51,831 bases of DNA, from positions 1 through 51,831 of the forward strand of contig CAZAVD010000001.1 in assembly GCA_964488715.1 (NCBI GenBank). The letters are read 5' to 3'. Each line of letters opens with the position of its first letter. The first letter of the stretch is position 1. A program made the position numbers and the translations under genes. Below are positions 15,736 to 36,876 of this stretch, in pieces. The notes under the pieces are model-generated. The model saw only the letters and a list, made by a program, of their open reading frames with translations. It did no database searches and was not told the DNA's origin. The DNA comes from an uncultured Gammaproteobacteria bacterium (GTDB taxonomy: Bacteria; Patescibacteriota; Patescibacteriia; UBA2196).

Positions 15736-15810
15736 GCGGGTATCGTATAAAGGCTATTATCCCAGGTTTCCAACCTGTAGATGGGGGTTCGATTCCCCCT
15801 ACCCGCTCCA
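15736..15810 (+). tRNA. tRNA-Gly (anticodon TCC), CCA encoded
   Basis: Acceptor GCGGGTA/TACCCGC. Anticodon loop TTTCCAA. T-arm GGGGG-TTCGATT-CCCCC. The D-stem is weak. Confidence 0.8.
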
Positions 15811-17430
15811 TCGTGAAAAAGCAGTCGCAAAACGGCTGTTTTTTCGTTTTCCTAAAGCATATTCTTTAAATTTCTGTGGTTCCAACATGGCTTTTTTAAT
15901 CTCTTTGTCTTCCACCCCTTTCTTGATTATTAAATAAGCTGGTTCGGGCTCTATTGTTAATATTCCGTCTTTTAACAAAAAGTTCTGACCAAACGCTCTT
16001 AATATTTGAGTTTTGGTTTCAAAATTACCTTTATCAAAACTATGTTTTGCATAGGTGGCAAAATGAAATGTCTTTTCTGACTTCTCTACCCATTCATCGA
16101 CACGCATTTCAATTTCTCTCAAGTCTCCTTCGATCCTTTTCTTTTCCGCCATCAGTATATTTTTTTGCTCTTTGAATTCTTTCTCGTCCATTAAATCTTG
16201 ATTTGTGTTTTCAGGTGAGATATAAAGTTTAATCAAATTATCAATTCTTTTTAAACAGCCATTAAAACTTTCTTGTTGATTTTTAAGTATTTGATTTCTA
16301 TCATTCTCTTCGATTTCATTTTCTTCTCTTAATAATTGTAAGGTAAATTCTAGAAATTCAGGTGGTATGGTTATGCTATCTAACTTTTCCATAACCTGTT
16401 TTTTTAATTCCTCATGACGAATTGTTTTCTGTGTGCAGTTTGTGTTCTTCTTGCGGTGGGTGCAATTATGATAGAGATAGCTACGCAATTCTCCAGTTGA
16501 TTTGATTTTCTTAAACTTTTCCTGTGAGGTAATCATTGCTCCGCATTCGCCACATCTAATAATCCCATTAAAAGGCAATCTTTTATTTTTTGGTCTTGGT
16601 TTACCTTTCTTGCCTAATATCTTTTGTGCAGTATCAAATTCTTGAGCAGTTATCATTGGTTTATGTTTGCCTTGATGTATTTCCCCCTCCCACATAAATT
16701 CTCCATAATAAAAAGGATTGGTAAATATTTTATAACCCACACTTAAGCTTAATTTGTCACTTGGGTGTCGTTTGGTATCAGGTGTTCTTAGTCCCCACTC
16801 ATCATTTGCCATTTCAACAATTTGTTTAACTGAATAATTGTCGGTTAAAAGGTGGTCCCACATTTTTCTTACTAAGCCAAACCTTTCTTGATCAACAAAT
16901 ATTTTCTTTTCTCCTTTCTCTCCCAGCTTGTCATTGGTGTAACCAATAGGAGCTCTGCCAGGTCGCCAACCTTTTTTAACTTTTGAATTAATACCCCTCT
17001 TAACATCTTTACTGAGATCTAAAATAAATTGATTGGCTACTCCCAATTCGACTGCCATCATTAGAACATTATCAGTCGGCAGATACTCTTTAGACGGTGT
17101 GATAATTGATTTAATAATTCCTTGCTGTAAAAGCCACTGAATTTTACCCCCGTCAATTGGGTTTCTTGATAAGCGGTTAATTTTCCAGCAAATAATTCCA
17201 TCTGCTTCGCCTCGTTCTATCATTTTTATCATTTCATCAAACATTGGTCTCCCTGGTTTTTTTGCCGATTTTGATTCACTAAATGTTTTTATTACATTTA
17301 AATTATTTTGATTTATTATTCTCTCATGTTCTTTGTGTTGATCCTCATTAGACTGAATTTGCCGATCTTCGCTATCGGTTGATTTTCTATTATATTCTAG
17401 GTAGCGTAAATTGTTTTGTTCTTTTTTCAT
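15799..17430 (-). CDS. large serine recombinase (integrase)
   Basis: 543 aa. Resolvase catalytic region YNRKSTDSEDRQ, a recombinase domain, a zinc ribbon (CGECGAMITS...YYHC) and a coiled-coil C-terminus. The last codons overlap the tRNA-Gly 3' end. Confidence 0.85.
   Translation of the reverse strand: MKKEQNNLRYLEYNRKSTDSEDRQIQSNEDQHKEHERIINQNNLNVIKTFSESKSAKKPGRPMFDEMIKMIERGEADGIICWKINRLSRNPIDGGKIQWLLQQGIIKSIITPSKEYLPTDNVLMMAVELGVANQFILDLSKDVKRGINSKVKKGWRPGRAPIGYTNDKLGEKGEKKIFVDQERFGLVRKMWDHLLTDNYSVKQIVEMANDEWGLRTPDTKRHPSDKLSLSVGYKIFTNPFYYGEFMWEGEIHQGKHKPMITAQEFDTAQKILGKKGKPRPKNKRLPFNGIIRCGECGAMITSQEKFKKIKSTGELRSYLYHNCTHRKKNTNCTQKTIRHEELKKQVMEKLDSITIPPEFLEFTLQLLREENEIEENDRNQILKNQQESFNGCLKRIDNLIKLYISPENTNQDLMDEKEFKEQKNILMAEKKRIEGDLREIEMRVDEWVEKSEKTFHFATYAKHSFDKGNFETKTQILRAFGQNFLLKDGILTIEPEPAYLIIKKGVEDKEIKKAMLEPQKFKEYALGKRKNSRFATAFSRWSG
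15821..15844 (+). terminator. terminator of the tRNA pair
   Basis: CAGTCG-CAAAA-CGGCTG followed by TTTTTT. It lies inside the 3' tail of the antisense recombinase ORF. Confidence 0.55.
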
Positions 17431-17458
17431 ATATTTATAAAACTAAAAGGACGGTCTG

Positions 17459-17563
17459 GCTTATCCGACTACAATTATCCAAAGATAATTTTCATCAGCA
17501 GACCGCCCATTACAGGGGACGAAAATTAAAAATCTTTGGATTTTATTGTTGTAGTGGATAAGC
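17459..17563. repeat. 105-nt long imperfect inverted repeat upstream of the recombinase gene
   Basis: Three arm pairs: GCTTATCCGACTACAA (17459..17474) with TTGTAGTGGATAAGC (17549..17563); ATCCAAAGAT (17477..17486) with ATCTTTGGAT (17532..17541); AATTTTC (17487..17493) with GAAAATT (17521..17527). Confidence 0.7.
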
Positions 17564-17588
17564 AATTTAATTATATCATTTTTTAAAA

Positions 17589-17756
17589 TTATTGGTAGTA
17601 TGCCAATTCTACCTTTCTAATTGGTTTGTAAATCAATTTGATCATTGTTGCGAGCTTTGTAATTTGATTATATACAAAATCATCACTTTTATCTTCACCA
17701 AATCGATTCTTCCATAATACTTTAAATTCTTGAATCTTGTCTTTACTAATTTGCAT
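17589..17756 (-). CDS. 55-aa hypothetical protein (below ORF-track cutoff)
   Basis: ATG at 17756 and TAA at 17591..17589. Translation: MQISKDKIQEFKVLWKNRFGEDKSDDFVYNQITKLATMIKLIYKPIRKVELAYYQ. Co-directional with the recombinase gene. Confidence 0.35.
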   Translation of the reverse strand: MQISKDKIQEFKVLWKNRFGEDKSDDFVYNQITKLATMIKLIYKPIRKVELAYYQ

Positions 17757-17873
17757 ATAATTTTATATTTTTATACATCTGGTTTGTCCATGCACTGTAT
17801 AGTTAATCTATTTTTAATTGCATAGAATTATAGATAATAAATACATAGAAACTATATATAACTATATAATTAA

Positions 17874-18149
17874 CTATATATTAACTTGCTTGTAATACTC
17901 ATCCCAAATTAATCCTGATAATACTTCCCATTTTTTCTTATCGGGCATGAAGAAGATTGGATGATAACCGCCTCCACCTTTATATGACGGTGGTACAATC
18001 CAAAGTTTGTCTCCCTTGGGGTTTATAAATTCAGATGCCATTATTCTAAAACCTTTAACAACGAAGTGGTCAAAATCTAAATTGACGATGGCTTTCATGG
18101 TTTTATCTTGAGTCTTTTTGACTTCAATATTTTTTGGTGTATATTGCAT
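17874..18149 (-). CDS. SpoVG-like small protein (tentative)
   Basis: KAIVNLDFDHFVVKGFRIMAS...LWIVPPSYK resembles the SpoVG core (MKAxAsIT.D..FvV.diRVi.G..GlFVAMPS.R). Length 91 aa. Confidence 0.35.
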   Translation of the reverse strand: MQYTPKNIEVKKTQDKTMKAIVNLDFDHFVVKGFRIMASEFINPKGDKLWIVPPSYKGGGGYHPIFFMPDKKKWEVLSGLIWDEYYKQVNI

Positions 18150-18270
18150 ATGTTTTCATTTTTATAATTTATTAATTTTTAATTAAAACGAGCTTGTTTT
18201 TTGAGCGAACATTCCGAAATAGGTAAATAAGGTAAAAATCTCTCTGTCCTTATGATTTCATTATGATTCT

Positions 18271-18585
18271 TTACGTAAACAGTGGTCTTACAACTTCCTC
18301 GAGCCACTCTTTTGACTTATCAATAGATTTCTTAACAGACAGTATGTCTTTAGTTTTATTGGCTAACATATATTCTTTTTCTTTGATGAGTAATAGTTCA
18401 TCAAAAATACAATCAATGGAGGTATAATATGTATCTCTATTTTTGTTATTATCAATTCTTAAGATGTATTGATACCTATCTGCCCAGATTTCAAAGCGAT
18501 CATTAATCTTGCAAACAAGCCCATTTTCTTTTTCTAAATATTGCTCTCGACCTTTTTTGATTTTTTCTTTGTGTTTTTTGTCCAT
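18271..18585 (-). CDS. hypothetical protein
   Basis: ORF on the track. The internal ATG at 18585 (MDKKHKEK) is preferred over the TTG at 18627. Confidence 0.4.
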   Translation of the reverse strand: MDKKHKEKIKKGREQYLEKENGLVCKINDRFEIWADRYQYILRIDNNKNRDTYYTSIDCIFDELLLIKEKEYMLANKTKDILSVKKSIDKSKEWLEEVVRPLFT

Positions 18586-18790
18586 ATCTTTATTGGTTAA
18601 AAATAAAAAACCCCGCTGGTATTCCAACGAGGTTAAATAAGATTATTAATTTATTAAATTGTTAAGTTATCCACATTCACTATATTAATTCTAGCATACG
18701 TGTTCTCCAAAAATCGTCGAATTTAAGAATTAGTAAATACATAAAAAAACAGCCATTTTCAGACTGATATTACTTTGTTCTGTATATCCA

Positions 18791-19627
18791 TTATACCACG
18801 ACAAATTTCCTAATTTTGCCTATTTTGTTTAATTTGATAAATCTATCGTCCCCAGCTTGTATTTGCGGTCTAACCTTAATTAAATCAATACCAAACGAGT
18901 CATTGGATTTATCATTTATCTTTCCTATATTTGTGCTAGTGCTATTGTTGTCATTAAGAAGATCGGGATTGTTTTGTGAATCAAGTTTTTCACGATCTGC
19001 GTTGTAACACATCAAGCAAGTCAAATAGGACATTTTAGTCTCTGTTATCCCGGGGTTATGTATAATATCTATACTCCTAAAAGAGATGTAATTAATTGGA
19101 TCGCATTTTTCCCAGTTATGTTTGTTTATATTGTAGCCTTTTTCTTCATCTGGATTTGCTATTCTGTCATTAAACATGTATCTACACATTTTTGCTAATT
19201 CACCCCTGATACTATCAAATCTAATCTTTTTCCCATTGTAATATATTTCCATTTTGTTTTCTTTTATAAATTTTTTTAGAATGAATTCATTGGAATGTGC
19301 TTGAGAATATATTATGCCCAAAAAATAGTCCAACTTAATTCTTTTATATTTAATCTTTATCTCTTTGTTGTTGTCATAATTTTCAACCAATTTATTTAAT
19401 ATCTCTTTATTCCTAATTTCAATAACTGGATCTTTTTGACTATCTTTAATTATTTGATTTAAAGCTTGCTTAAATTTATCCATATTTTCTTTAATGGATT
19501 TTTTTCTATCAAACAAAGGAAAATCTTTTAGTCTAAAAATAACGATTCTCATTTGTTCGTCTTTGTCATCTAGTCTCCTTTGAACAAGAAATTTACAGAT
19601 CTCGAATTGATATTCTTTATTAGTCAT
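18791..19627 (-). CDS. hypothetical protein
   Basis: Long ORF. ATG at 19627 (MTNKEYQFEICKF). No motif recognised. Confidence 0.5.
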   Translation of the reverse strand: MTNKEYQFEICKFLVQRRLDDKDEQMRIVIFRLKDFPLFDRKKSIKENMDKFKQALNQIIKDSQKDPVIEIRNKEILNKLVENYDNNKEIKIKYKRIKLDYFLGIIYSQAHSNEFILKKFIKENKMEIYYNGKKIRFDSIRGELAKMCRYMFNDRIANPDEEKGYNINKHNWEKCDPINYISFRSIDIIHNPGITETKMSYLTCLMCYNADREKLDSQNNPDLLNDNNSTSTNIGKINDKSNDSFGIDLIKVRPQIQAGDDRFIKLNKIGKIRKFVVV

Positions 19628-20048
19628 ATACTTTAATAATAGCACCAAAAGCATAAAACATTAAGAAGAACCTCGTACAAATACGTCTTTTACTCTAGTT
19701 ATTACTGACATTCTAGTATGTATGCTAAAAAATACTCAAAACAGCGAAAGAGTCCCTAAAAATAGTATTTTAATCTCACAAATATGGGACCCAAATAACC
19801 ACCCCCCATGCCACAATTATTTAATACCAATTTTATAGATGAATAATTGATTCTAGATAAGATTATTCATCAAGCTATTACTGCTTAATCACAGTCGGTC
19901 TGTTGCTATTTGTCTGCCGTCACATGATCAAATAGCACCAAGCAATTATAAGCCAGGAACTGCAGTCTTGGCTTATTTTGTTTGGTTAAGAAAAAGGTCG
20001 GCTCGGGCGGCTCGCTCACGCTAATTAAGCTAATTAAATTATAAATCT

Positions 20049-20516
20049 ATGACAAGAGGAACGAGTATACTTATCACTAACACAAAATCAATCATAAGTT
20101 GTGAGTGGGATGGTGATATGTATATAGAAAAAGACTCAAACGGACAAGCCCTGCTCAATCATTTAGAAGATGTAAATACTGTCAGGCAATTTAAACGAGC
20201 TATAGAAAAGTTTAATGATAATCACTTTGGATATAATGATGTTCCTATATATCTCACAGTAAAACGATTAAGGAATATTAAGTTTAAACAGAGCACCTAT
20301 TACAGAGATTGGTTTAGTGATTACTTATTCTTTTTAAACATTTCTTGGTTCAAAATCAAAATTACTGACATGGATAATAACGTATTTCATCTATACCCTG
20401 GGGAACTCGTTGTCTTTTATTTCGGTAAGTTTTATATGTCCCATAATTATCACGCAAAAGCTTATGCAGAAATACCAATCGAAACAATTAAACCAATACC
20501 AGCAGAACAACATTGA
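20049..20516 (+). CDS. hypothetical protein
   Basis: 155-aa ORF with no recognisable motif. Confidence 0.45.
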   Translation: MTRGTSILITNTKSIISCEWDGDMYIEKDSNGQALLNHLEDVNTVRQFKRAIEKFNDNHFGYNDVPIYLTVKRLRNIKFKQSTYYRDWFSDYLFFLNISWFKIKITDMDNNVFHLYPGELVVFYFGKFYMSHNYHAKAYAEIPIETIKPIPAEQH

Positions 20517-20715
20517 GATTCTAGATTCTCAAACTCTGCAAAAACTTAAAAACAATGATTGGCGTAATGCTCCTACACTTATTTTAAGATGTATTAAGTG
20601 CGGGAAAAATGGTCGAATTACAATGCCAATTGTTTGTTTCTTTAACTACGATCCAACACGAATTATGTGTTACGATTGTCAAAAATTATATGGAAAAAGA
20701 AAATACCTTTCATAA
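20464..20715 (+). CDS. small zinc-ribbon protein (start uncertain)
   Basis: CIKCG...CYDC pairs. The ATG at 20464 overlaps the preceding ORF. Confidence 0.35.
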   Translation: MQKYQSKQLNQYQQNNIEILDSQTLQKLKNNDWRNAPTLILRCIKCGKNGRITMPIVCFFNYDPTRIMCYDCQKLYGKRKYLS

Positions 20716-21001
20716 GGCCCAAATAAATTTTACTGTGCGACGGGATAAGGATAATAATGTGATAGATAAGAATGTGATGATTAATGTTAGAACGAATGAA
20801 GTTTCTGAAGCAATATCAGTTTACAATTCATTGCGTCAACAATTGAATGGACAACTTGATCCTAATCCTACACAGGGTCAATTAACAGAAAAATGTCCAA
20901 ACTGTGGTAGAAACTTAGTAGAAAGAAAATCAAAGAATGGTGACACCTTTCTTGGTTGTAGCGGTTTTCGGGACGGATGCAGATTTACTAAAACACTATA
21001 G
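20690..21001 (+). CDS. small protein with a topoisomerase-type C4 zinc finger
   Basis: CPNCGRNLVERKSKNGDTFLGCSGFRDGCRFT matches the zf-C4_Topoisom pattern. ATG at 20690. Confidence 0.55.
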   Translation: MEKENTFHKAQINFTVRRDKDNNVIDKNVMINVRTNEVSEAISVYNSLRQQLNGQLDPNPTQGQLTEKCPNCGRNLVERKSKNGDTFLGCSGFRDGCRFTKTL

Positions 21002-21009
21002 TTTTTAAT

Positions 21010-21043
21010 AAAGGCTACATTCACTTGTTAGCCTTTATTTTTT
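21010..21043 (+). terminator. rho-independent terminator
   Basis: AAGGCTA...TAGCCTT stem followed by TATTTTTT. Confidence 0.55.
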
Positions 21044-21252
21044 GCCATAATTGGTTTATACTTAAATTAGTTAATAATACAATTTAATTTAGCCTAACCC
21101 ATTGGTGTTTACTGGTGGCATGGTTATAAATCCTCGAATACAAAGATGGCTTAGTTAGTCAGTCCTGTATTCGAGGTCTACTTGGGAAACCTTGTAGGAT
21201 ATCTGAAAAGATATCGCTGACGCTGAGCCTTTTTTGTTCCCCATAAACACAT

Positions 21253-21543
21253 ATGAAGATCAAGCAAAATATCACAAAAGAACAATGGGATGAAATGGAT
21301 GAAAAACAAAAGGGATTATTTATTAAAAATACTCCTTCTTTTGAATATACAAATAACAACTATCCTAACATAGGACAGATGATAGAATTTTTAGGCCACA
21401 ATTGGGATAATAATTTTGTTGATTATTCTCAAGAACATAAATCTGTAATGTTACCCCCTTACGATGTTTTGTGTGATCAGCTTTGGAAAAACTGCAAAGA
21501 CAAACTGAAACACAAAAATATAGACGAATTAAAAAACTTTTAA
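21253..21543 (+). CDS. hypothetical protein
   Basis: 96-aa ORF. Confidence 0.4.
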   Translation: MKIKQNITKEQWDEMDEKQKGLFIKNTPSFEYTNNNYPNIGQMIEFLGHNWDNNFVDYSQEHKSVMLPPYDVLCDQLWKNCKDKLKHKNIDELKNF

Positions 21544-21547
21544 TTAT

Positions 21548-21985
21548 ATGCAAACTAAAACCAAAATCTTAATCAAACAATTTGCATTAGTTACCATAGC
21601 ACTTTTGATTTGTTTTCTGCTCGTAATCTTTGAAATCGATTACTTTGATTTGATGTTTGCTAATTACGAATTTTTATATAATACAGCACAAATAATCGGA
21701 GCACTAATGGCAGTATTAGTTATTTTATATATCATCAAATTTAAGAGTAGCGACTTTAAGATTTTAAATACCATTTTTAGAGTTTTATCTTGGATATTTA
21801 TAGCCAGTTCATTATCATTATTTATAATCGAAATATTTAACATGTTTCGTTTTTCTTATTCTGATATAACTTATATTTTATATCTCACCCCGTATTTAAT
21901 AACAGCCATATTATTCTATCTGGCAGTTAGAGCCAATAAGAAATTAAATAACCAAAATGAAAAAATTAATCAAGAAAATAAATGA
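21548..21985 (+). CDS. hypothetical multi-pass membrane protein
   Basis: 145 aa with about 4 hydrophobic helices. Confidence 0.5.
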   Translation: MQTKTKILIKQFALVTIALLICFLLVIFEIDYFDLMFANYEFLYNTAQIIGALMAVLVILYIIKFKSSDFKILNTIFRVLSWIFIASSLSLFIIEIFNMFRFSYSDITYILYLTPYLITAILFYLAVRANKKLNNQNEKINQENK

Positions 21986-22292
21986 CACCATAGAAAAACA
22001 TGCAATTGGTATAGAAATCGGATTGTTCTTTGTGGTACTTTCAGAACTCTTGCACTTTCTCAAATATTCAAAATTCTCAGTTGATATGATGATGGTCGAG
22101 GTTTTTGCCTTAGTATTTATTGTGTTGATACTGAATTTATTTCAGACAGAAAAGGATAAGAGGAAATTGATCTTAAAAACTGCAGGGCTTATATTGCTAT
22201 TTGTGCTAATAGCTTTTCAGATTATGTTTGACCACATATTCGGGGAAGGGTTTACTTGTTGTGAGGAAGTGTTTGATTGGATATTAAGGTAG
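21957..22292 (+). CDS. hypothetical membrane protein
   Basis: 111 aa with about 3 hydrophobic helices. Overlaps the previous gene by 29 nt. Confidence 0.45.
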   Translation: MKKLIKKINDTIEKHAIGIEIGLFFVVLSELLHFLKYSKFSVDMMMVEVFALVFIVLILNLFQTEKDKRKLILKTAGLILLFVLIAFQIMFDHIFGEGFTCCEEVFDWILR

Positions 22293-22325
22293 TAAATATA
22301 GATAAAAGGTAGTAAATATAGATAA
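22286..22325. repeat. perfect 2 x 20 bp tandem duplication
   Basis: AAGGTAGTAAATATAGATAA occurs twice, straddling the stop codon at 22290..22292. Confidence 0.9.
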
Positions 22326-22331
22326 TAAGAT

Positions 22332-22355
22332 AAACCGCTAATATTTGCGGTTTTT
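22332..22355 (+). terminator. rho-independent terminator
   Basis: AACCGC-TAATATTT-GCGGTT followed by TTT. Confidence 0.6.
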
Positions 22356-22372
22356 ATTTTCATATACAACTA

Positions 22373-22401
22373 TTGACAGAGAAAAGTATAAGGAATATAA
22401 T
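22373..22401 (+). promoter_or_regulatory. consensus promoter TTGACA-17-TATAAT (distal hsd promoter)
   Basis: TTGACA at 22373..22378 and TATAAT at 22396..22401. Confidence 0.6.
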
Positions 22402-22432
22402 TACAGTATAGCGTATGTATGTAATCAAAAAC

Positions 22433-22461
22433 TTGACAAATAATTTGCATAGATTTATACT
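22433..22461 (+). promoter_or_regulatory. promoter TTGACA-17-TATACT placed for a leaderless hsd mRNA
   Basis: TTGACA at 22433..22438 and TATACT at 22456..22461. The ATG at 22468 lies 7 nt after the -10 box and has no Shine-Dalgarno sequence. Confidence 0.55.
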
Positions 22462-22467
22462 ACAAGC

Positions 22468-23037: not shown

Positions 23038-23038
23038 T

Positions 23039-24556: not shown

Positions 24557-24583
24557 TTTTGGCCTTATGGTCATTATAAACAT

Positions 24584-30400: not shown

Positions 30401-30602
30401 AATGTTTGGTGTGTTGAAGAAAGAAGCTATTGTTGACTGGTATAGAAATAATGAAGTTAAGCGTGTGATATATAATAAACTGGATGATTATTTGTATGAT
30501 GAGATTATTCAAAACCAAGGCATTAAATTAACCAATGAAGAAATAAAAACAATCATTGATAAAACCATTAAATTGGCAACAGAAAATTACGAGATTATAT
30601 AA
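27411..30602 (+). CDS. hsdR: type I restriction endonuclease subunit R
   Basis: 1063 aa. N-terminal nuclease region (PDIVVFVNGIPFAVIENK). SF2 motifs HTQGSGKS, DEAH (VLIDEAHRSQ), FTGTP and QAIARVNR. Confidence 0.9.
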   Translation: MQQNTSNIDKVNFDETKQSQLPFVEFLVNMGYRYISPKEVLSERGGDISKYILRDTAIKKLSEINEYEHNGEMHKFKDKDVVEAIDELENIQFEGLIDTSRKIYSMIMPTSGGKTIKVFHGGKNVSKNFRFIDFANPLNNDFAVTVEYEAMGKKGIRPDIVVFVNGIPFAVIENKKASESIEKALSQLNRNQGADYCPKLFIYPQLLVGANKEELKYGTTGTPNKFYASWREKGTDKDKLIKEASKIIGKEIDKKIYQQILTDLNGATFGHTQILDRVPTEQDLSVMMMFGKARLLDLTKNHILYDAGIKKIMRYQQYFAIQKILNRIDEKEDTKKGSKRKGGIVWHTQGSGKSLTMVMFVKALIENPNIINPRVLIVTDRRDLDRQIKTTFENSGLKKNVIQAKSGEHLIDLLRKKDLRVVTTLIHKFQSAAKKKTTLEDLDENIFVLIDEAHRSQGGMANLEMNKIIPNACYIAFTGTPLLKQEKSRQKFGSFIDKYTIDDALEDEIILPLIYEGRFVDLKSDKKEMDRQVDRLTEGLGDNLKKQLQAMTEKRIIKDNSNRIAEIAYDIEKHYLKTFAGTGLKGQIVAPSKFSAMLFQNYFKNSGKINTALVVSDENGIIDDQDEHKKEVEGYLKNIKEKYQSLLSYEKDVIKSFVHNDEGVELLIVVDKLLTGFDAPRNTVLYLSKELRDHNLLQAIARVNRLYDNEQPPKTCGYIIDYSENAQNLKTAMQLFGNYDEEDVDGALIDVQDKIDELESSYSELHEMFKSVKGDDEAYIQHLSEEPTRKEFYDTLNQFLKSFNECVVLQGFVHEFKHLDTYRQELKKFMELRKVASVRYADRVDFNKYKQALVKIMDNNIKAEEAELLTKQITVTDREAFEQVVEEMGSDKSRAEAIAAQVQRTITEKLETDPIFYRRFSEKVDEILQKMREKKIADIEALKQMKLIDKEVDNKTDDEIPEDIRAKKGSDIFYRNLQDEFSVHNVDDEKYQSIILEMFGVLKKEAIVDWYRNNEVKRVIYNKLDDYLYDEIIQNQGIKLTNEEIKTIIDKTIKLATENYEII

Positions 30603-30604
30603 AT

Positions 30605-31309
30605 ATGGAGACTCAAATTTTTACTTATGGAAAGTATTCTTATGAATATTTTCTAATTAGACAATCACGTAAAACCGTAAGCTTAATTGTTTATCCTAAT
30701 TTTAAGATAGTTTTGAAATGTCCTATTGACTATAAAGATGAAAAGATACAGAGATTTCTAAAAAACAAATGGTCTTGGCTTGAGAAGCAAATCAAATACT
30801 TTAAGAAATACCAAAAGACTATCTTAAATAAAGAGTATTTATCAGGTGAATCATTTTTGTATTTAGGCAGGCAATATAAGTTATCAGTTAAAAGAGGTGC
30901 AGAAGATAAGGTGACTTTAAAGCATGGTAAGTTATTGTTATTTACTACGGAAAAAGTTGGTAACAAAAAACATAATAGAAAAATATTAAAGGGTTGGTAT
31001 GCGAATAGGATTGAGAAAATATTTAATGATGAGTATAAAAAGGTGTTAAAGACTTTTAATTATGTTTTTGAACCGCAGCTTATAACTCGTGAAATGAATA
31101 AACGCTGGGGAAGTTTCTTGAACCATAAAAAAATAATTCTTAATCCTAAGTTAATTCAAGCTCCTAAAGAATGTATTGATTATGTAATTACCCATGAATT
31201 ATGTCACATGAAACATAAAAATCATGATACGAAATTTTACAGATTATTAAAAAGTAAAATTCACAATTGGGAAGAGATTAAAGAGAAGTTGGAATTAAGA
31301 TTTATATAA
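30605..31309 (+). CDS. M48/DUF45 (YgjP-like) zinc metallopeptidase
   Basis: HExxH motif in VITHELCHMKHKNH. 234 aa. This family commonly trails hsdR. Confidence 0.75.
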   Translation: METQIFTYGKYSYEYFLIRQSRKTVSLIVYPNFKIVLKCPIDYKDEKIQRFLKNKWSWLEKQIKYFKKYQKTILNKEYLSGESFLYLGRQYKLSVKRGAEDKVTLKHGKLLLFTTEKVGNKKHNRKILKGWYANRIEKIFNDEYKKVLKTFNYVFEPQLITREMNKRWGSFLNHKKIILNPKLIQAPKECIDYVITHELCHMKHKNHDTKFYRLLKSKIHNWEEIKEKLELRFI

Positions 31310-31363
31310 GGTTATGTATAAACACCTAAAATCAAAACAAGAATACATTGATAGATATGACCG

Positions 31364-31392
31364 CCTGACAGTTGATAGCTGTCGGGTTTTTT
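31364..31392 (+). terminator. rho-independent terminator of the hsd operon
   Basis: CCTGACAG-TTGATAG-CTGTCGGG followed by TTTTTT. Confidence 0.7.
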
Positions 31393-31445
31393 AGCTAATA
31401 TTAGCCTATATTTAATAAAATAGTAAAATTGTCAGGGTTCAAACC

Positions 31446-31474
31446 TTGACAACTTTTTAATTATGTGCTATAAT
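31446..31474 (+). promoter_or_regulatory. perfect consensus promoter TTGACA-17-TATAAT
   Basis: TTGACA at 31446..31451 and TATAAT at 31469..31474. The -35 box lies in the right arm of the inverted repeat TTGTCAGGGTT/AACCTTGACAA (31429..31452). Confidence 0.65.
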
Positions 31475-31480
31475 TGAGTA

Positions 31481-31792
31481 TACAAAATAAAGATGTGGAT
31501 ATTTCCTGATCTTTACAATCAAACTTAAAAACAAGAGAGACAGTTTAGTAGGCACTGTGAGTCCTACAATAAGCAATTTTATAGGTTTATTAGCTTTTTT
31601 GCGGGCTTCTCTCTTGATTCACAGAAGGCCGTTTTTGTTTTTTTAAGCAGTAAAGTGGGAGTAAATAATTATTCTCACTTAGATTACTTAAAAAGTTCTT
31701 TACAACATCCTCCTAAATGATTTAAGGTAATTAGTCAGTTTAATAAGCTGTTTGATTACCTTAAATCATGAAAAACATTGATGGAGGATAAA
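31481..31792 (+). ncRNA. structured ~310-nt leader / possible cis-regulatory RNA or sRNA
   Basis: Mutually exclusive pairings: 31532..31540 with 31608..31616, versus the terminator-like hairpin at 31601..31644. A 15-bp helix pairs 31717..31731 with 31755..31769. An anti-SD ATCCTCC at 31707..31713 is complementary to the SD at 31783..31789. Confidence 0.4.
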
Positions 31793-32374
31793 ATGAAAAC
31801 TGTTTTGATGGGACCCCCAAGGTCCGGTAAAAGTTGCATGCGAGAAGGATTAAAGCAGGCAATTAAGAATATCCCAGGAGCGCCGTATCCTTATGTAATC
31901 ACGGCATGTCCTGATGGCGAAGGTGCTTGGTTCCAGGAAGCTGCAAACCGCGATTCGGAAAAAGCCCGCGAATTAAAAACTGATTATAAACAATCAGTCG
32001 GTGGTTTTTCCCCCAAATTTGTTCAGCGGATTGCAGAATCCGTAGCCAACTGCACTTTGCCGATGACTTTGGTGGATATTGGCGGAATTCCATCAAAAGA
32101 AAATGAAGTAATCTGTGCTTCCGCCACTCATGCCATCATTCTGGCTGGTGATATGAGTAAAGTTCCTGAGTGGAGAGAGTTCTGCTTAAAGCTCGGAATT
32201 GAAGTGATAGCAGAAATTCATTCTGACTATCATGGCCAGACAGACGAAGTCCCCACCCTTGGTGAGGATGAAATCTGGAGAGGATCCGTGCATTATCTTG
32301 AGCGCGGTGAACCAGTGGCCGAGCGTCCCACTATAAAAAAGCTTGCAAAGATATTGATTGAAAAATCAAAATAA
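31793..32374 (+). CDS. P-loop NTPase (uncharacterised; partner of Csx3-like gene)
   Basis: The ATG at 31793 lies 5 nt after GGAGG. Walker A is GPPRSGKS, with a Walker-B-like LVDIGG. The region is GC-enriched. Confidence 0.6.
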   Translation: MKTVLMGPPRSGKSCMREGLKQAIKNIPGAPYPYVITACPDGEGAWFQEAANRDSEKARELKTDYKQSVGGFSPKFVQRIAESVANCTLPMTLVDIGGIPSKENEVICASATHAIILAGDMSKVPEWREFCLKLGIEVIAEIHSDYHGQTDEVPTLGEDEIWRGSVHYLERGEPVAERPTIKKLAKILIEKSK

Positions 32375-32453
32375 AAAATGTTTCTGGCCACCTCAGAAAC
32401 AAACCAAAAAAGCTACTGACGGTGGGGTAGCAAAAATTTTTTAGGAGGCTATC

Positions 32454-32759
32454 ATGGCTCATTACAATGTAAATCTCGAAAACGAAAACGTGTTGAAGGT
32501 CGGCTTCGGCGAACCATCGCAAAATGATGAAATCGTTCGTGACGCTGTCAAGCGTTTGGATGAAATGACTGAATCCGGCGAATTGGCTGGTGGCTCTGTT
32601 ATCAAAATTAACGGCCCGGCCTCTCTGCCCGTTGCTGTTGCAATTGCCCATGCGGTCAATCATCTATACGAAACCGTTGCTGTTTTCGATCCAAAGCTGG
32701 GTAAATATGTTGTCGCTGTTTCTCATGGCGCATACAATCCTGGCGACCTGATTGACTAA
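32454..32759 (+). CDS. csx3: Csx3/Crn3-family protein (CRISPR-associated cA4 ring nuclease / deadenylase fold)
   Basis: 101 aa with an AGGAGG Shine-Dalgarno sequence. IKINGPASLPVAVAIAHAVNHLYETVAVFDPKLGKYVVAVSHGAYNPGDLID parallels A. fulgidus Csx3 ISGRGPIWLHCFLAHKYHHTPFVAVYDPRLGAVVVQSHSELREGDVID. The reference sequence is recalled from memory. Confidence 0.7.
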   Translation: MAHYNVNLENENVLKVGFGEPSQNDEIVRDAVKRLDEMTESGELAGGSVIKINGPASLPVAVAIAHAVNHLYETVAVFDPKLGKYVVAVSHGAYNPGDLID

Positions 32760-32787
32760 ATAGTTATCAGGAGAGCAAAACCCGTTT

Positions 32788-32834
32788 GAGGAGTGTCTGA
32801 AAAACAAGTCACTCGTGGCACTCCTCTTATTTTT
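32788..32834 (+). terminator. terminator-like hairpin after csx3
   Basis: GAGGAGTG (32788..32795) pairs with CACTCCTC (32819..32826), followed by TTATTTTT. Confidence 0.5.
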
Positions 32835-32911
32835 CAAAATCTGATTTATGCAAATAAGGTTTTGAAAGATAAAAAATAAAATAGTTCTTTACAATAAAAA
32901 AGAGGTGTATC

Positions 32912-33427
32912 GTGGATATTCTAACCGTAGTTGAAAAGATGGTTGTCGAATGGCAACAAAAGCTCGGTGATTCAGTTGAAGTTATTCTCGGAGGTTCTTT
33001 GGTCTCCGATTTATTTATTTTTGATGAGAAAACAGAACTGATTGATGTTGATGTTCGTTTTCTCACAAATAATCCAGAAGACCCTGAACTTCGTCAAAGG
33101 ATAGAAAAAGTTACAGGTCTCAAATACCGTAAAACCATCACTGTTAATGATTGGCCAACTGGTCAAAGTCTGGGCATTATGGTTGAAGGTCAGATGAGCT
33201 TACCTGAACTACCTTTACCAATGGATATTGAGGGTTGCATTCGCAATCCAAAATACGTTGGCTGGGGTAAATTCTATCGAGACGTTTTAACTGAAAAAGA
33301 GCTGGAAGATTTTCGCCAAAAGAAAATCGCTTTACGCCATGACAAAAAAGCTTATAAACAGATGAAAGCTGAAGTTAGGGCTGAAGTTGAAAAGCGATGT
33401 TTGGAACAAGGAATTGTAAGTAAGTAA
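32912..33427 (+). CDS. minimal nucleotidyltransferase (pol-beta superfamily) candidate
   Basis: GTG start after AAGAGGTG. GGS-x15-DVDV motif (ILGGSLVSDLFIFDEKTELIDVDV), a later acidic MDIEG, and a charged helical C-terminus. Confidence 0.5.
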   Translation: MDILTVVEKMVVEWQQKLGDSVEVILGGSLVSDLFIFDEKTELIDVDVRFLTNNPEDPELRQRIEKVTGLKYRKTITVNDWPTGQSLGIMVEGQMSLPELPLPMDIEGCIRNPKYVGWGKFYRDVLTEKELEDFRQKKIALRHDKKAYKQMKAEVRAEVEKRCLEQGIVSK

Positions 33428-33459
33428 TCTATTAACCTGTAAAACAAGGAGAAAATATC

Positions 33460-35331
33460 GTGAATAATCAGAGAACTGTGAACGGCAAGGCTCTTGGCCT
33501 GGCGTTCTGGAAGAAAGCTGACGAAGTTGTGGGGCTGGTCAAAAAAAGTCGTGGTATTGTGGTAATGCCTACTGGCACTGGCAAAACAACCCAAACACCG
33601 CAATTGTTACACGAACAAGGTTTTACTCGCCAAGGAAAAATTTATATATCTGTTCCCAGAAGAATCTTGGCAGTTGAACTGGCAGCTCGTGTTGCTGATG
33701 AAATGGGAGTAAAACTCGGTGAATTGGTTGGCTATCAGATCCGTGGTGAACGTAAATTGAGTCATCAAACACGAATCATCTTTATGACAGAAGGAACATT
33801 ACGCGGAAAAATTCGCAATAATCCAATGTTAAAAGGTGTCAGCGTGGTCGTATTCGATGAGTTTCATCAACGAACTCTTATGAGTGACTTCAATGTTGCT
33901 CTTATCGAACGAGCTCAGCAAGAAGGTTCGCAGGTAGCGTTTTTGCTCATGTCGGCCACAATTGACCCGACCTATCTTGCCAATCACTTTGATTGCGACG
34001 TGGTTGATGGTTCTGATTTGGATACTACCTATCCAATTACTGAGGAATATATTGATCCTCAGGAAAACGGTGGTTTATTCAAAACAGCAGCCGAGCAGGT
34101 AGAGCGCATGATTTTGGAAGCTGAAGGCAATGGTATGGTTTTTATGCCTGGCAAAGCTGAAATCAACCAGACAATCGATGCAATCCGTGATCTTAATCTG
34201 CCCAAAAATGTAACTGTTCTACCGTTACACGGTGATCTTGATGGCGATGACCGCCATGCTCCATTTGTGGAACGAGATGGTATTACAGTCACGATTGCAA
34301 CGGACATTGTTGAGACTGGTGCCACATTACCAAATATTGGCTGGGAAGTTGATTCTGGACTGGCAAGAGAAAAAGGATATGATCCCGTATCTGATATTTC
34401 TTCCTTGAAAGTTCAGAAAATAGCCAAAGACCGCTTAAAGCAACGTCGTGGCCGAACAGGTAGAGTTCGTGAAGGTCGATATGTTGGATTATTTTCAAAG
34501 GATGACTTTGATTCTCGTCCAGATCGAACCAAGCCCGAAATCTTTCGAACTCCTTTAAGAGAAGTTGTATTAACCATCAAATCACTTGGTCTGTCTCGAG
34601 AAGGAAATTCAATTCGATTGATTGACTATCCGCCAAAAACCAACTGGAAGCAAGCTAAACAACAATTGCAGATGCTGGAGTTTGTTAACAGCGACGATGA
34701 GGCGAACATCAACGAATATGGCAAAAAAGCTGTTGAACTTGGCTGTGATCCTCGTGAGTCTGCTATGTTGCTCAAGTCCGCTCAGTTGGGTTGTTTACGG
34801 GAGATGTCAATTGCTATTGCCGCCCAGCAAAGCCATCGCTTACTGTATTGTCCGAAAAGTGAAGAATATGAGGCCAATATGGCTCATGCGAGATTCCGCA
34901 CTTCGGAAACATGTGATGGATGGACAGCAGTAAAGGTGATTCGGATGGCAGAAGCTCGTGGCGAAGAATCTCTCGGATCCTGGTGTCGAGCAAATTATGT
35001 ATCATACCGCTCGATTCAGGAAATCTGGCAAACTTCACGTCAACTGCTTACAACCATGAAAGGTTTAGGTTTTTCAGTAAATGAGCAGGAAGGCACTGAA
35101 GAAAATTTACGCAAAGCAATTTTTGCCGGATTGCCAGACCGAGTATTCCAATGGGATGGACGGGATTGGTTCAAACGTGATGATGATTCTTGCCTGATGG
35201 GACGAGACTCGGTAATCCGTGAACGATCAAGTGATACACCAGTAGCCGCTTGGGAAGTTATCGAAATTTCTACCAGAAAAGGTGGAACTCTTCGATTGAT
35301 CACCAATGCGGTGACAGTTGAAACAAATTAA
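33460..35331 (+). CDS. DEAH/RHA-family helicase (HrpA/HrpB-like)
   Basis: GTG start after AAGGAG. Motifs PTGTGKTT, DEFH, SAT (LMSATID), FMPG, TDIVETGATLPNI and QRRGRTGR. HA2-like region LEFVNSDDEANINEYGKKAVELGCDPRESAMLLKS. Confidence 0.85.
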   Translation: MNNQRTVNGKALGLAFWKKADEVVGLVKKSRGIVVMPTGTGKTTQTPQLLHEQGFTRQGKIYISVPRRILAVELAARVADEMGVKLGELVGYQIRGERKLSHQTRIIFMTEGTLRGKIRNNPMLKGVSVVVFDEFHQRTLMSDFNVALIERAQQEGSQVAFLLMSATIDPTYLANHFDCDVVDGSDLDTTYPITEEYIDPQENGGLFKTAAEQVERMILEAEGNGMVFMPGKAEINQTIDAIRDLNLPKNVTVLPLHGDLDGDDRHAPFVERDGITVTIATDIVETGATLPNIGWEVDSGLAREKGYDPVSDISSLKVQKIAKDRLKQRRGRTGRVREGRYVGLFSKDDFDSRPDRTKPEIFRTPLREVVLTIKSLGLSREGNSIRLIDYPPKTNWKQAKQQLQMLEFVNSDDEANINEYGKKAVELGCDPRESAMLLKSAQLGCLREMSIAIAAQQSHRLLYCPKSEEYEANMAHARFRTSETCDGWTAVKVIRMAEARGEESLGSWCRANYVSYRSIQEIWQTSRQLLTTMKGLGFSVNEQEGTEENLRKAIFAGLPDRVFQWDGRDWFKRDDDSCLMGRDSVIRERSSDTPVAAWEVIEISTRKGGTLRLITNAVTVETN

Positions 35332-35340
35332 ACCCGATGT

Positions 35341-35381
35341 GCAAGGTTGTTGTTAACACTCCAGCAACCTTGCCTATTTTT
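35341..35381 (+). terminator. rho-independent terminator of the cassette
   Basis: GCAAGGTTG (35341..35349) pairs with CAACCTTGC (35365..35373), followed by CTATTTTT. Confidence 0.7.
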
Positions 35382-35426
35382 CAAAGTTTATAAAAATGTT
35401 ATTATAATTTTTGAAGAATATCAAAG

Positions 35427-35520
35427 TTTTCACTCATCTGAGTGATGACGGTAAATATGTCAGTTAGATTTCTCTCTTGTCTGATATACTTGCCAAATGT
35501 CATCCTCAGGTGAGTGAAAA
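35427..35520. repeat. 22-23 bp inverted repeat with a 49-nt spacer
   Basis: TTTTCACTCATCTGAGTGATGAC (35427..35449) pairs with GTCATCCTCAGGTGAGTGAAAA (35499..35520). The spacer contains TCTCTCTTGT (35471..35480). Confidence 0.75.
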
Positions 35521-35708
35521 TAAATAAATGTTTATCATAAATTTAGTTCTGGTATAAAAATTAATCCTGTGTTATTCTTAAAATAAGTTCCAACGTCCTT
35601 CACGATAGAGCTCCAATTATATTTTACTAAAAAAGAATTACGTAATTAATTACATAATTCTTTTTTTGATTGGAAAACAATAGTTGTCAAACTATTTTAC
35701 ATACATAT

Positions 35709-35737
35709 TTGACAAATATTCTTTACATTAGTATAAT
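35709..35737 (+). promoter_or_regulatory. consensus promoter TTGACA-17-TATAAT
   Basis: TTGACA at 35709..35714 and TATAAT at 35732..35737. The inverted repeat TTGTCAAA...TTTGACAA (35685..35716) overlaps the -35 box. Confidence 0.6.
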
Positions 35738-35756
35738 ATAATTATAAATTAAACCT

Positions 35757-36554
35757 GTGGAAAAATTTATGATTAAAAAATTAGCGCAAACAATTAAAAA
35801 ACTGCGTTTAAAAAATGAATTTTCTCAAGAATATTTAGCAAACGAATTAGATATTTCACGCCCTACTTATATTCAAATTGAAAAAGGCGAACGGGAGATC
35901 ACTATTTCAGAAGCAAAAAAATTAGCTTTAATTTTTAGCATAACATTAGAAGATTTGTTAAAAGATAAAAATTTAGAAATTAAGATTAATTTTGAAAAAG
36001 AAAAAGAAATTAAAAAAACAACAGGACCAGAAATTAGAATTAGCGTGCCACAAAAAAATTTGAAAAAATTTAAAGAAGTTTTGTTATATATTTTAGAAAA
36101 AATTGGAGCTAAGCCAAATATTGGCGAAACAGCATTATATAAAATATTGTATTTTATAGATTTTGATTATTATGAAAAACATGAAGAACAATTAATTGGT
36201 GCTACTTATATTAAAAATCGTTATGGTCCAACGCCAGTTGAATTTAAAAAAATAATTGATCAAATGCAAAATAACAAAGAAGTAGTTAAAATAAATAACA
36301 AATATTTTCAATACGAGCAAAAAAAATATTTGCCCCGCAGAGAGCCAGATTTAAGTAAATTGTCAGCGCAAGAAATTATACATATTGATGAGGTTTTGGA
36401 TCGTTTGTCAAGTAAAAGCGCAAAAGAATTATCAGAATATTCTCACGGCGATATTCCTTGGAAAACACATAATAATGGAGAAAAAATTAGTTATGAGACT
36501 GTTTTTTATCGTGATGATAAATATTCTGTCAGAGAGTATGATGATGAATTATAA
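35757..36554 (+). CDS. XRE-HTH fused to a Panacea/SocA (DUF4065) antitoxin domain
   Basis: HTH: LRLKNEFSQEYLANELDISRPTYIQIEKGEREITISEAKKLALIF. Panacea-like: ETALYKILYFIDFDYYEKHEEQLIGATYIKNRYGPTPVEF. An alternative ATG lies at 35769. Confidence 0.7.
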   Translation: MEKFMIKKLAQTIKKLRLKNEFSQEYLANELDISRPTYIQIEKGEREITISEAKKLALIFSITLEDLLKDKNLEIKINFEKEKEIKKTTGPEIRISVPQKNLKKFKEVLLYILEKIGAKPNIGETALYKILYFIDFDYYEKHEEQLIGATYIKNRYGPTPVEFKKIIDQMQNNKEVVKINNKYFQYEQKKYLPRREPDLSKLSAQEIIHIDEVLDRLSSKSAKELSEYSHGDIPWKTHNNGEKISYETVFYRDDKYSVREYDDEL

Positions 36555-36876
36555 ATCCACACAAGAGTTTTCTAAAGATTTTAAAAAATTATTTAAGAAG
36601 TATAAAACACTTAAACAGGATTTAGACAACTTTAAAGGTAGATTCCCTGAAATAGATTTATTTGGTAATAAAAATTTTGCTATTTTTTATGACAATGGAA
36701 GGACAAAAATAATAAAAGCTAGATTTTTTTGTAGATATCTAAAAGGAAAAACATTAAGGATAATTTTTGCTTATTATTCAAATGAAAAGATAGTAGAATT
36801 TATAGAAATATATTTTAAAGGCAACAAAGAAAGGGAAGATCAGGATAGAATAAAAGAATATTTAAAAACTACATAG
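36538..36876 (+). CDS. small toxin candidate (RelE/ParE-like fold suspected)
   Basis: ATGATGATG start at 36538..36546, overlapping the antitoxin stop. About 112 aa. LKGKTLRIIFAYYSNEKIVEFIEIYFKGNKE resembles the RelE/ParE core. Confidence 0.45.
   Translation: MMMNYKSTQEFSKDFKKLFKKYKTLKQDLDNFKGRFPEIDLFGNKNFAIFYDNGRTKIIKARFFCRYLKGKTLRIIFAYYSNEKIVEFIEIYFKGNKEREDQDRIKEYLKTT

Follow-up and report, generated by a model that had tools for sequence, protein, structure and literature searches.

What occupies the 21 kb between a tRNA-Gly gene and the next recognisable core genes of this contig, and by which route did it arrive there? The stretch of DNA that we analysed, hereafter called the window, corresponds to bases 1–51,831 of a contig (CAZAVD010000001.1) with a total length of 59,368 bases, from an uncultured member of the Patescibacteria, whose genome of 865 kb is assembled in 77 contigs, is 100% complete, and has a GC content of 28.7%. 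An earlier note, made from the letters alone, had read about 20 kb of it as an integrated element or defence island abutting tRNA-Pro and tRNA-Gly and carrying a large serine recombinase (LSR). In our analysis, the island extends from 15,811 to 36,916, with core genes from 36,917 onwards, and it is best explained as a composite integrative island whose founder was an LSR-borne element inserted at the 3' end of the sole tRNA-Gly(TCC) gene of the genome, a reading to which we assign a probability of about 0.75. Its three parts are called here Blocks A, B, and C (Table 1).

The window was compared with genomes of the same genus (G001 and G002), of another genus of the same family (G010), and of other families (G016 and G338), and also with metagenome contigs, which carry L-numbers or, for three contigs from one sample of the Joint Genome Institute (JGI), the designations P0122, P0002, and P0003. 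The arrangement of the window is not a binning or assembly chimera, since metagenome contigs from other samples were 100% identical to it over the parts that they covered, with the exception of L125 at 99.86%. A JGI contig of 59.8 kb spans both flanks and nearly the whole island.

The recombinase gene and its junction with tRNA-Gly

The 543-aa LSR contains a Resolvase domain (PF00239, residues 13–154, E = 2.7e-16), a Recombinase domain (PF07508, residues 186–274), and a zinc ribbon (Zn_ribbon_recom, PF13408, residues 286–350). The catalytic-site serine S17 as well as R15, R86, and R89 were invariant in a 24-member alignment that included the window LSR, which keeps all invariant residues; judged from its sequence, the enzyme looks intact and may still be active. 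Its scores against the named families XisF and CcrA/B/C were all far below the cut-offs. The gene had been described as lying immediately after tRNA-Gly. Its presence beside the tRNA and its nature as an LSR were borne out, but it does not follow the tRNA: the two genes are convergent, and the LSR open reading frame (ORF) overlaps the last 12 nt of tRNA-Gly, its stop codon and last three codons (W-S-G) falling within the acceptor end.

The acceptor and T stems of tRNA-Gly(TCC) show perfect pairing in sequence. The order IMPase, tRNA-Pro, tRNA-Gly is common to the window and to contig C25 of the same-genus genome G001, and in the left junction, attL, the host (B) side is formed by the 3' end of tRNA-Gly. 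Just past the tRNA lies a terminator hairpin, which L044, L043, and L046 carry at the same place with arm differences that preserve pairing. Every tRNA-Gly element has such a hairpin followed by a T-run just past the tRNA, and changes in both arms keep the pairing; in G008 and G014, a tRNA-fMet is followed by the same terminator layout. Because this conserved hairpin lies antisense to the last codons of the LSR gene, we conclude that the element replaces the terminator of the tRNA.

No duplicate of the tRNA-Gly 3' end had been found by eye, and mismatch-tolerant searches of the window (at most three mismatches in 25 nt or two in 14 nt, plus a general repeat search) likewise returned no second copy. 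Nor were duplicated tRNA fragments found in six related loci, with 5–17 kb of each element side searched. The absence of such a duplication fits the 2-bp core of serine recombinases, and it thus argues against a tyrosine-type model, not against integration. With no displaced tRNA fragment to mark it, the distal boundary cannot be read from the sequence. At the left end, the missing duplication suggests a crossover at the tRNA's 3' end or just past it. Two other candidate marks of integration were rejected: the best inverted match to the junction hairpin (18744–18771), considered as an att site, belongs to the 287-aa gene, whose terminator it forms on the opposite strand, and an encoded CCA, considered as the mark of an element-derived tRNA end, is uninformative because nearly all tRNA genes in this genome encode CCA.

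The fusion between LSR tail and tRNA recurs throughout the family. Among the candidates scored, 3,479 homologues of the window LSR were found at E <= 1e-10, those with a named source carrying the labels Patescibacteria, Moranbacteria, or Parcubacteria, and a family match at E <= 1e-60 was present in 96 of 301 sampled genomes of the class. In 25 of the 29 top-ranking loci from the class, the end of the LSR ORF falls within a convergent tRNA gene (Gly, Asn, initiator Met, His, Trp, Leu, Ser, or Gln), with an overlap of 11–141 nt. The ORF likewise ends within a convergent tRNA-Gly at three metagenome loci whose LSRs are 60–63% identical to that of the window; a 568-aa LSR in G002 overlaps tRNA-Glu by 41 nt, and the sole hit in IMG/VR, a distant LSR with 38% identity, has an ORF ending in tRNA-His. 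The total comes to 25 of the 29 class-level homologues and five further loci, covering nine tRNA types. LSR homology extends to the last residues of the query at most junctions, irrespective of the tRNA, and the tRNA end therefore appears to mark the end of the element.

In a maximum-likelihood tree, six tRNA-Gly recombinases, including that of the window, form one clade with 100/99 support. The tRNA target clusters on the LSR tree: with nine target labels (eight tRNA types and 'none'), 15 changes were counted against a mean of 23 after shuffling, and a value as low was reached in 0 of 200 shuffles. In reviews, it is tyrosine recombinases that are said to target tRNA 3' ends, and the insertions of serine-recombinase elements are placed within genes (PMC5704250, PMC4383910). 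We came across no paper reporting that LSRs of Patescibacteria target tRNAs, an absence that applies only to the literature searched. We lean towards the view that the Patescibacteria harbour a large and diversified family of LSRs targeting tRNA 3' ends, characterised by clade-specific tRNAs (Gly, Met, His, Asn, Trp, Ser, Leu, Gln, and Glu), an ORF running antisense into the tRNA, an element-supplied terminator, a structured leader, and often a LOOT RNA. Such LSRs would be a main vehicle of defence islands in these reduced genomes, and on a given backbone they would be swappable with tyrosine integrases. Under this view, the targeting of tRNA ends would have evolved independently within the serine-recombinase superfamily, and the orphan LOOT RNA would gain a biological context for the first time.

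Two observations concern tRNA-Met genes in G014. Two of them were considered as the bounds of an element, but they are the initiator and an elongator tRNA in a different order, and no boundary follows from their presence. At locus L151 (G014:C2), the elongator tRNA-Met (locus positions 10887–10963) has a partial duplicate just downstream, which is devoid of the 5' acceptor strand, has an insert in the anticodon region, and is labelled by ARAGORN as an 85-nt 'tRNA-Gly(acc)'. This duplicate resembles a fragment displaced in a separate integration.

A mechanism for the integration at tRNA-Gly can be proposed, with its steps taken from the known behaviour of LSRs. One LSR dimer would bind attP of the circular element and a second dimer attB, which would comprise the last ~20–25 bp of the tRNA and the DNA just downstream. 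The four strands would be cut at the 2-bp core, and subunit rotation would join the half-sites, producing an attL in which the 3' ends of the tRNA and of the recombinase gene are fused. The tRNA would be left whole and without a duplicated fragment, the replacement terminator would arrive with the element, antisense in the last codons of the recombinase gene, and the recombinase ORF would continue into the tRNA up to a stop codon.

The leader of the LSR gene is 77% identical in nucleotide sequence to that of L044. In an alignment of six members, 92.5% of the cells pair, compared with 27–48% in slid controls, and compensatory changes occur in 14 of 28 pairs; the apical and start-proximal segments might pair mutually. 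This leader has no matching family in Rfam. A search for a P-arm-like motif shared among related elements yielded only the LSR leader, and the motif was discarded as a candidate. The small gene next to the leader has homologues near the LSR in L043, L044, G008, G014, and G056, and a 56-aa ORF is found at that place in G002. Its 55-aa product was modelled by AlphaFold as a helical hairpin (predicted local distance difference test, pLDDT, of 82), for which a fold search returned no significant match; it is a candidate partner or directionality factor of the LSR. A second LSR, 37% identical to that of the window, is encoded in the same genome (G000:C14:12327–13748, locus L090), and no tRNA gene was found in the 8.7 kb analysed around it.

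Insertion relative to related genomes

In the same-family genome G010, tRNA-Gly(TCC) is followed by a 97-bp spacer and then by the methyltransferase–rnhB–exonuclease block in the same orientation, and the window has 21,106 bp extra relative to this arrangement. In G001, the contig carrying IMPase, tRNA-Pro, and tRNA-Gly stops inside tRNA-Gly, and the neighbours of the methyltransferase gene are genes found on contigs C31, C54, and C2 of the genome analysed here; an independent metagenome contig (L100) shows a G001-like arrangement. One contig of G002 stops at tRNA-Pro and another at the methyltransferase stop codon. The homology of G001, G002, and L100 to the window begins exactly at this stop codon, and no island DNA was found in G001 and, in G002, only a related backbone located elsewhere. 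The gene order of the window is thus absent from its relatives, as shown by the short spacer of G010 and the other neighbours in G001, and the comparison by which the earlier note had proposed to refute the insertion left it standing.

These same data could be read differently, the region being ancestral and having been deleted or rearranged away in G010, G001, and G002. The genomes are rearranged, the G001 methyltransferase gene being joined to genes that lie on contig C31 of the present genome, and the short spacing between tRNA-Gly and the methyltransferase gene is seen in one genome only. However, the region contains an integrase, restriction-modification (R-M), TIR, and toxin–antitoxin (TA) genes, and a cassette with 42% GC, its backbone and the cargo genes tested have a patchy, non-vertical distribution, and the same backbone occurs at other tRNAs with other integrases. 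We therefore consider an ancestral origin scarcely credible.

The earlier note would also have abandoned the insertion if the composition, the 31.4–35.4 kb block aside, had been indistinguishable from that of the flanks; for most of the island, the composition left the insertion standing. All eleven 3-kb segments starting between 15,001 and 30,001 ranked at the 84th–97th percentile of tetranucleotide distance, the GC-rich block reached the 100th percentile, and all but one of the flank segments lay below the 70th. The last 1.5 kb, containing the TA pair, is host-like.

Several points weigh against an insertion seeded at tRNA-Gly. The empty site rests on a single genome of another genus, G010, which is 89% complete and whose tRNA-Gly is only 73% identical to that of the window. 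A tRNA-Gly gene was found beside the methyltransferase gene in none of ten metagenome relatives at 40–61% identity (the scan returned 12 loci, none with an adjoining tRNA-Gly). No empty site was seen among the other-sample contigs shown, and all those passing the tRNAs or the methyltransferase stop codon carry the island. The composition of Block A is only moderately atypical, the island without the GC-rich block having 31% GC versus 28.7% for the genome. Conceivably, the crossover took place within the tRNA and the displaced fragment was lost later. Finally, no attR was found, and the right edge of the mobilised unit could lie near 31.4, 35.6, or 36.9 kb.

Three contigs joining IMPase to recA via a dispersed repeat were considered as an empty site and rejected; they are instead assembly chimeras or the product of a rearrangement. 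L129, L133, and L135 exit the window in the dispersed repeat before the tRNAs. This repeat resembles a miniature inverted-repeat transposable element (MITE), is ~140–170 nt long with inverted ends TGTCATTCCGACCG ... CGCTCGGGATGACA, and is present in >30 copies in the genome.

Backbone, cargo, and right-hand blocks

Block A (15,811–31,445) would be the element proper, consisting of the LSR gene with its leader, the backbone genes, a LOOT RNA, and a type I R-M cargo with a PDC-M50/ThsB-type TIR module. The LSR gene is followed by nine to ten small ORFs, almost all of them without family matches. Of the assignments proposed for these small orphan genes, the Top1-type zinc ribbon is solid (E = 3.6e-10), and the SpoVG-like call for the 91-aa protein is weak (E = 3.7e-5, under the Pfam cut-off). 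The 96-, 145-, and 111-aa proteins had no family matches in Pfam or PHROGs, and related elements have an S49 peptidase gene in their place. Two backbone proteins are rare: the 287-aa protein has only four homologues among 5.8 billion proteins, and its structure model (pLDDT 36) offers no usable fold, while the 155-aa protein was found in 2 of 401 genomes of the class and a metagenome scan returned no relatives.

The backbone was found with other integration modules. In the same-genus contig G002:C26, tRNA-His and tRNA-Glu are followed by a different, 568-aa LSR gene, then by genes for proteins of 56, 92, 119, and 289 aa and a divergent 155-aa gene, the order thus being shared with the window; ORFs of the same sizes occur in the same order beside the LSR genes of the P0002 and P0003 contigs. 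The P0122 contig, from the same sample, has a tyrosine integrase at the position of the LSR module, adjoined by 279-aa and 104-aa backbone genes, and its homologue of the 287-aa protein (83% identity) has a 156-aa gene, zinc ribbons, half-hsdS, hsdM, TIR, and M50A as neighbours. On contig G338:C34, a tyrosine integrase gene beside tRNA-Asp is followed by homologues of the 155-aa and zinc-ribbon genes and an S49 peptidase, and then by hsdM, hsdS, an SMC-like gene, hsdR, YgjP, and GmrSD. The integrase is therefore exchangeable on the same backbone, either for an LSR specific to another tRNA or for a tyrosine integrase. The comparisons with G002, P0122, and G338, together with the rarity of the 155- and 287-aa proteins, identify Block A as one element family with swappable integration modules.

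The LOOT RNA lies between a zinc-ribbon gene and the 96-aa gene, and its match covers positions 1–121 of the 121 positions of the model. LOOT was present in 20 of 61 related genomes, and in seven genomes a copy was located 0.2–6.4 kb from an LSR gene of the window family, in every case towards the element and in divergent orientation to the LSR gene. These results suggest that LOOT is a mobile-element RNA.

The island could also be what is left of a prophage or phage satellite, degraded to the point that the structural genes are gone. The LSR relative L046 adjoins a small-terminase-like gene and a run of unannotated genes, and one LSR homologue is located on an IMG/VR contig. However, no capsid, portal, terminase, tail, or lysis family was matched by Pfam in any island ORF, in line with the earlier opinion that the island is not an obvious prophage, a search of the ten small ORFs against PHROGs gave one weak match to a family of unknown function, and close backbone relatives also show just small ORFs and R-M genes. 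A phage ancestry thus appears quite improbable.

The type I R-M operon that had been proposed, with a trio of TIR genes embedded in it, was found as a set of hsd genes with three defence genes between hsdM and hsdS, the first TIR gene being frameshifted. HsdM, HsdS, and HsdR are all present and full length: HsdM scored 286.5 bits against TIGR00497 (cut-off 242.75), HsdR scored 464.2 bits against TIGR00348 (cut-off 284.55), and PF01420 was matched twice in the 406-aa HsdS. A consensus promoter is located upstream of the operon, at 22373–22401, and the tight packing of the genes suggests that the embedded genes may be co-transcribed with the hsd genes. Extra genes within an hsd operon are likewise known from R-M loci with embedded defence, such as the E. 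coli prr locus encoding PrrC. The order hsdM-hsdS-hsdR-YgjP recurs in G338:C34, which has the SMC-like gene at the equivalent place, the half-hsdS/hsdM pair is also present in the P0122 contig, and the 155-aa and zinc-ribbon genes recur upstream of the type I R-M genes in both contigs. As the backbone is accompanied by R-M and TIR genes in three independent elements that differ in their integrases, the R-M operon is cargo of the element and not a separate arrival. At the beginning of hsdS (26186–26210), a break at 26,210 is common to two independent assemblies, and a spare half-size hsdS gene lies upstream; the specificity gene may vary within the population.

The first TIR protein was matched by PADLOC as ThsB (E = 4.6e-51) and as PDC-M50B (E = 6.4e-47), its neighbour as PDC-M50A (E = 2.8e-41), and the second TIR protein as ThsB-like (E = 3e-73). 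Both components of PDC-M50, a PADLOC candidate system consisting of the M50A membrane protein and a TIR-like M50B neighbour, are thus matched, but the M50B-like gene of the window is frameshifted: its N-terminal part (24584–24703) ends in two stop codons near 24700, and the domain resumes in another frame from 24672. The same split was called on L112, L113, and L127, from other samples, in contigs that are 100% identical here, and the P0122 contig has an intact 168-aa version of the gene. Despite the two ThsB-like proteins, no SIR2, SLOG, or Macro domain was found by Pfam in any island protein; the island is without a ThsA-type effector and is therefore not a Thoeris system. The cargo presumably serves in anti-phage defence.

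Block B, described earlier as a foreign four-gene cassette, stands out clearly in composition, with 41.8% GC compared with 28.7% for the genome (100th percentile, beyond all 240 background 3-kb segments). A contig from another metagenome (L160) is 89% identical to it over 4,096 bp and has differing flanks, by which Block B is recognised as a portable cassette; a promoter, a leader, and 3' hairpins of its own are part of it. Relatives of its helicase at ~64% identity were found in other Patescibacteria and in other phyla. Both parts of the Csx3-AAA profile, which describes a ring nuclease associated with type III CRISPR systems and fused to an ATPase, were matched by PADLOC (ATPase part, E = 1.7e-57; Csx3 part, E = 4.2e-26). 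In contrast to this fusion, the window version consists of two separate genes whose order is reversed, has genes for a 171-aa protein and a DEAH helicase attached to it, and travels as a 4.1-kb cassette; no CRISPR-Cas genes were found in the window. A 22-nt inverted repeat (TTTTCACTCATCTGAGTGATGAC / GTCATCCTCAGGTGAGTGAAAA) at the 3' end of the cassette (35437–35521) is kept in the L160 copy.

In Block C, the proposed XRE-Panacea TA pair was confirmed for the XRE-Panacea protein, which is matched by Pfam, but not for the small downstream ORF, which matches no family; a look-up of the exact XRE-Panacea protein returned no record. Block C is 81% identical in nucleotides and 87% in amino acids to a TA pair on contig G016:C8, from another family, where it adjoins tRNA-Leu, and the rnhB gene of G016 is only 54% identical to that of the window. 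Block C was not found in the same-genus genomes G001 or G002. It was thus acquired by horizontal transfer. A 38-nt AT-rich palindrome (AAAAAAGAATTACGTAATTAATTACATAATTCTTTTTT) at its start (35629–35666) is repeated on several contigs of this genome and, at 90–97% identity, on several contigs of G002; it looks like a bidirectional terminator similar to repetitive extragenic palindromes (REP-like). As had been predicted, core genes resume at ~36.9 kb, the methyltransferase and rnhB genes both being recognised by Pfam.

Whether the whole 21.1 kb forms one currently mobile unit, with attR in the last ~50 bp (36,869–36,916) and Blocks B and C having landed inside as cargo, was considered in view of these blocks. 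The insertion relative to G010 covers the full interval, the synteny with G001 and G002 returns only at the methyltransferase stop codon, and the LSR looks intact. On the other hand, Blocks B and C have independent histories, Block C being host-like in composition, no att-like symmetry or repeat was found at 36.87–36.92 kb, and no empty-site or excised variant was seen among the population contigs, so that a single mobile unit of this extent seems unlikely. An attR may lie in one of three candidate stretches, namely the 136 bp that follow ygjP, the ~100 bp separating Block B from Block C, and the 48 bp of the right junction.

Conversely, the site might be a passive hot spot for defence genes, at which the LSR element makes up no more than the left part, Block A at most, and is perhaps fixed and immobile, Blocks B and C and possibly the R-M operon having arrived by unrelated events at a permissive position beside a tRNA. 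Sharp homology breaks at 31,446, 35,528, and 35,633, the clustering of contig ends of other assemblies at 35.0–35.9 kb, and the presence of the island in all population contigs shown that run past the tRNAs are in favour of such a scenario. The cluster of contig ends fits a repeat or strain variation and proves nothing by itself. However, three independent elements that differ in their integrases have the R-M and TIR genes together with the backbone, and for Blocks B and C the scenario is largely compatible with a composite island seeded by an LSR element; we take it seriously without favouring it. In the composite island that we prefer, the type I R-M operon with its TIR genes would be the original cargo, and the Csx3/ATPase/helicase cassette and the XRE-Panacea block would be later, separate arrivals. 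The integrative-element reading of the earlier note therefore stands in that the region is absent in relatives and its LSR belongs to a tRNA-fused family, but the region is a mosaic of at least three separately acquired blocks and is not demonstrably one mobile unit.

Table 1. Coordinates of the features of the island and its borders in the window.
Feature	Position	Strand	Basis or remark
tRNA-Pro(TGG), host flank	15658–15734	+	ARAGORN; Rfam tRNA, 67.5 bits
tRNA-Gly(TCC)	15736–15810	+	ARAGORN, Rfam; intact, sole TCC isoacceptor gene in the genome
tRNA-operon terminator hairpin, element-supplied	15817–15844	+	Antisense within the last codons of the LSR gene
LSR, 543 aa	15799–17430	−	Pfam PF00239, PF07508, PF13408
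LSR gene leader and promoter	17431–17590	−	−10 TATAAT box, then long hairpin
55-aa helical protein	17589–17756	−	Accompanies LSR in most relatives examined
Backbone genes: 91 aa (weakly SpoVG-like), 118 aa, 287 aa	17874–19654	−	Order shared with G002:C26
Divergent backbone genes: 155-aa protein, zinc-ribbon proteins including Top1-type	20049–21001	+	Pfam PF01396
LOOT RNA (Rfam RF03000)	21091–21215	+	79 bits versus gathering cut-off 46.4, E = 1e-13
Genes for a 96-aa protein and for small hydrophobic proteins of 145 and 111 aa	21253–22292	+	ORFs
Half-size specificity gene (189 aa, one target recognition domain, TRD; 22468–23037) and hsdM (505 aa)	22468–24556	+	Pfam, TIGR00497
Embedded defence genes: split TIR, PDC-M50A (25093–25500), second ThsB-like TIR	24584–26192	+	PADLOC
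hsdS (406 aa, two TRDs), hsdR (1063 aa), YgjP-like metallopeptidase	26186–31309	+	Pfam, NCBIfam TIGR00348
Block B cassette: P-loop ATPase, Csx3, 171-aa protein, 623-aa DEAH helicase	31446–35528	+	PADLOC, GC, L160
Block C, putative TA pair: XRE-Panacea (35757–36554) and ~110-aa partner (36544–36876)	35633–36868	+	Pfam
Right junction, 48 bp, AT-rich hairpin	36869–36916	.	Between last island gene and methyltransferase stop codon
Host flank: methyltransferase (36917–37483), rnhB (37652–38257), 3'-5' exonuclease-like gene	36917–38797	−	Pfam; syntenic in G001, G002, G010
MITE-like dispersed repeat copies	15454–15615, 336–519, 11779–11964, 49258–49372		

Relation to known integrative elements

SCCmec inserts at the 3' end of a conserved gene, rlmH, which stays functional, and the window island is alike in this respect. 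Known LSR elements, such as those of the phiC31, Bxb1, and A118 phage integrases, Tn4451 with TnpX, the fdxN element with XisF, and SCCmec with CcrAB, share with the window the three-domain architecture of the recombinase and the location of its gene at the extreme end of the element. They likewise have no long direct end repeats, as expected for a 2-bp core (PMC5704250). The window element differs from them in its target, a tRNA 3' end, whereas the reviewed elements insert inside protein-coding genes and usually disrupt them (PMC5704250), and in the tail of its LSR ORF, which reads antisense through the element-borne tRNA terminator into the tRNA.

The tRNA islands of tyrosine integrases (Islander/TIGER, P4-like) resemble the window island in that the integrase gene lies at the 3' end of an intact tRNA gene, the cargo consists of accessory and defence genes, and the island is absent in relatives; backbone relatives of the window element themselves use tyrosine integrases at tRNA-Asp and elsewhere. 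The enzyme of the window, however, differs in family and presumably in chemistry, and there is no displaced tRNA fragment at the far end, the feature that Islander needs (PMC4383910). Repeat-based island finders following an Islander-type logic would miss such elements because no tRNA fragment is duplicated. Reviews and textbooks assign tRNA 3' ends to tyrosine integrases; here, about one third of the 301 class genomes carry homologues of one LSR family, and at most of the 29 loci analysed the LSR gene is joined tail to tail with a tRNA gene.

A defence island flanking a tRNA is ordinary in kind; the anchoring by an LSR, the absent tRNA duplication, and the associated RNAs set this one apart as a variant. 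The orphan LOOT RNA and a new structured recombinase leader are hereby placed on mobile elements. The family is also modular, one backbone being combined with LSRs of varied tRNA specificity or with tyrosine integrases and with cargo comprising type I R-M, TIR, Csx3, and TA modules. Its LSRs would offer natural site-specific integrases with a conserved, predictable attB for genetically intractable, uncultured Patescibacteria, in which tools are scarce.

Further TA or abortive-infection modules are found in the flanks, at 14046–14650 and 41056–42386, with a BrnT/CopG-like pair just upstream of IMPase and an AbiEii-containing pair downstream of the island. The window is thus rich in defence and addiction genes when the island and its flanks are taken together.

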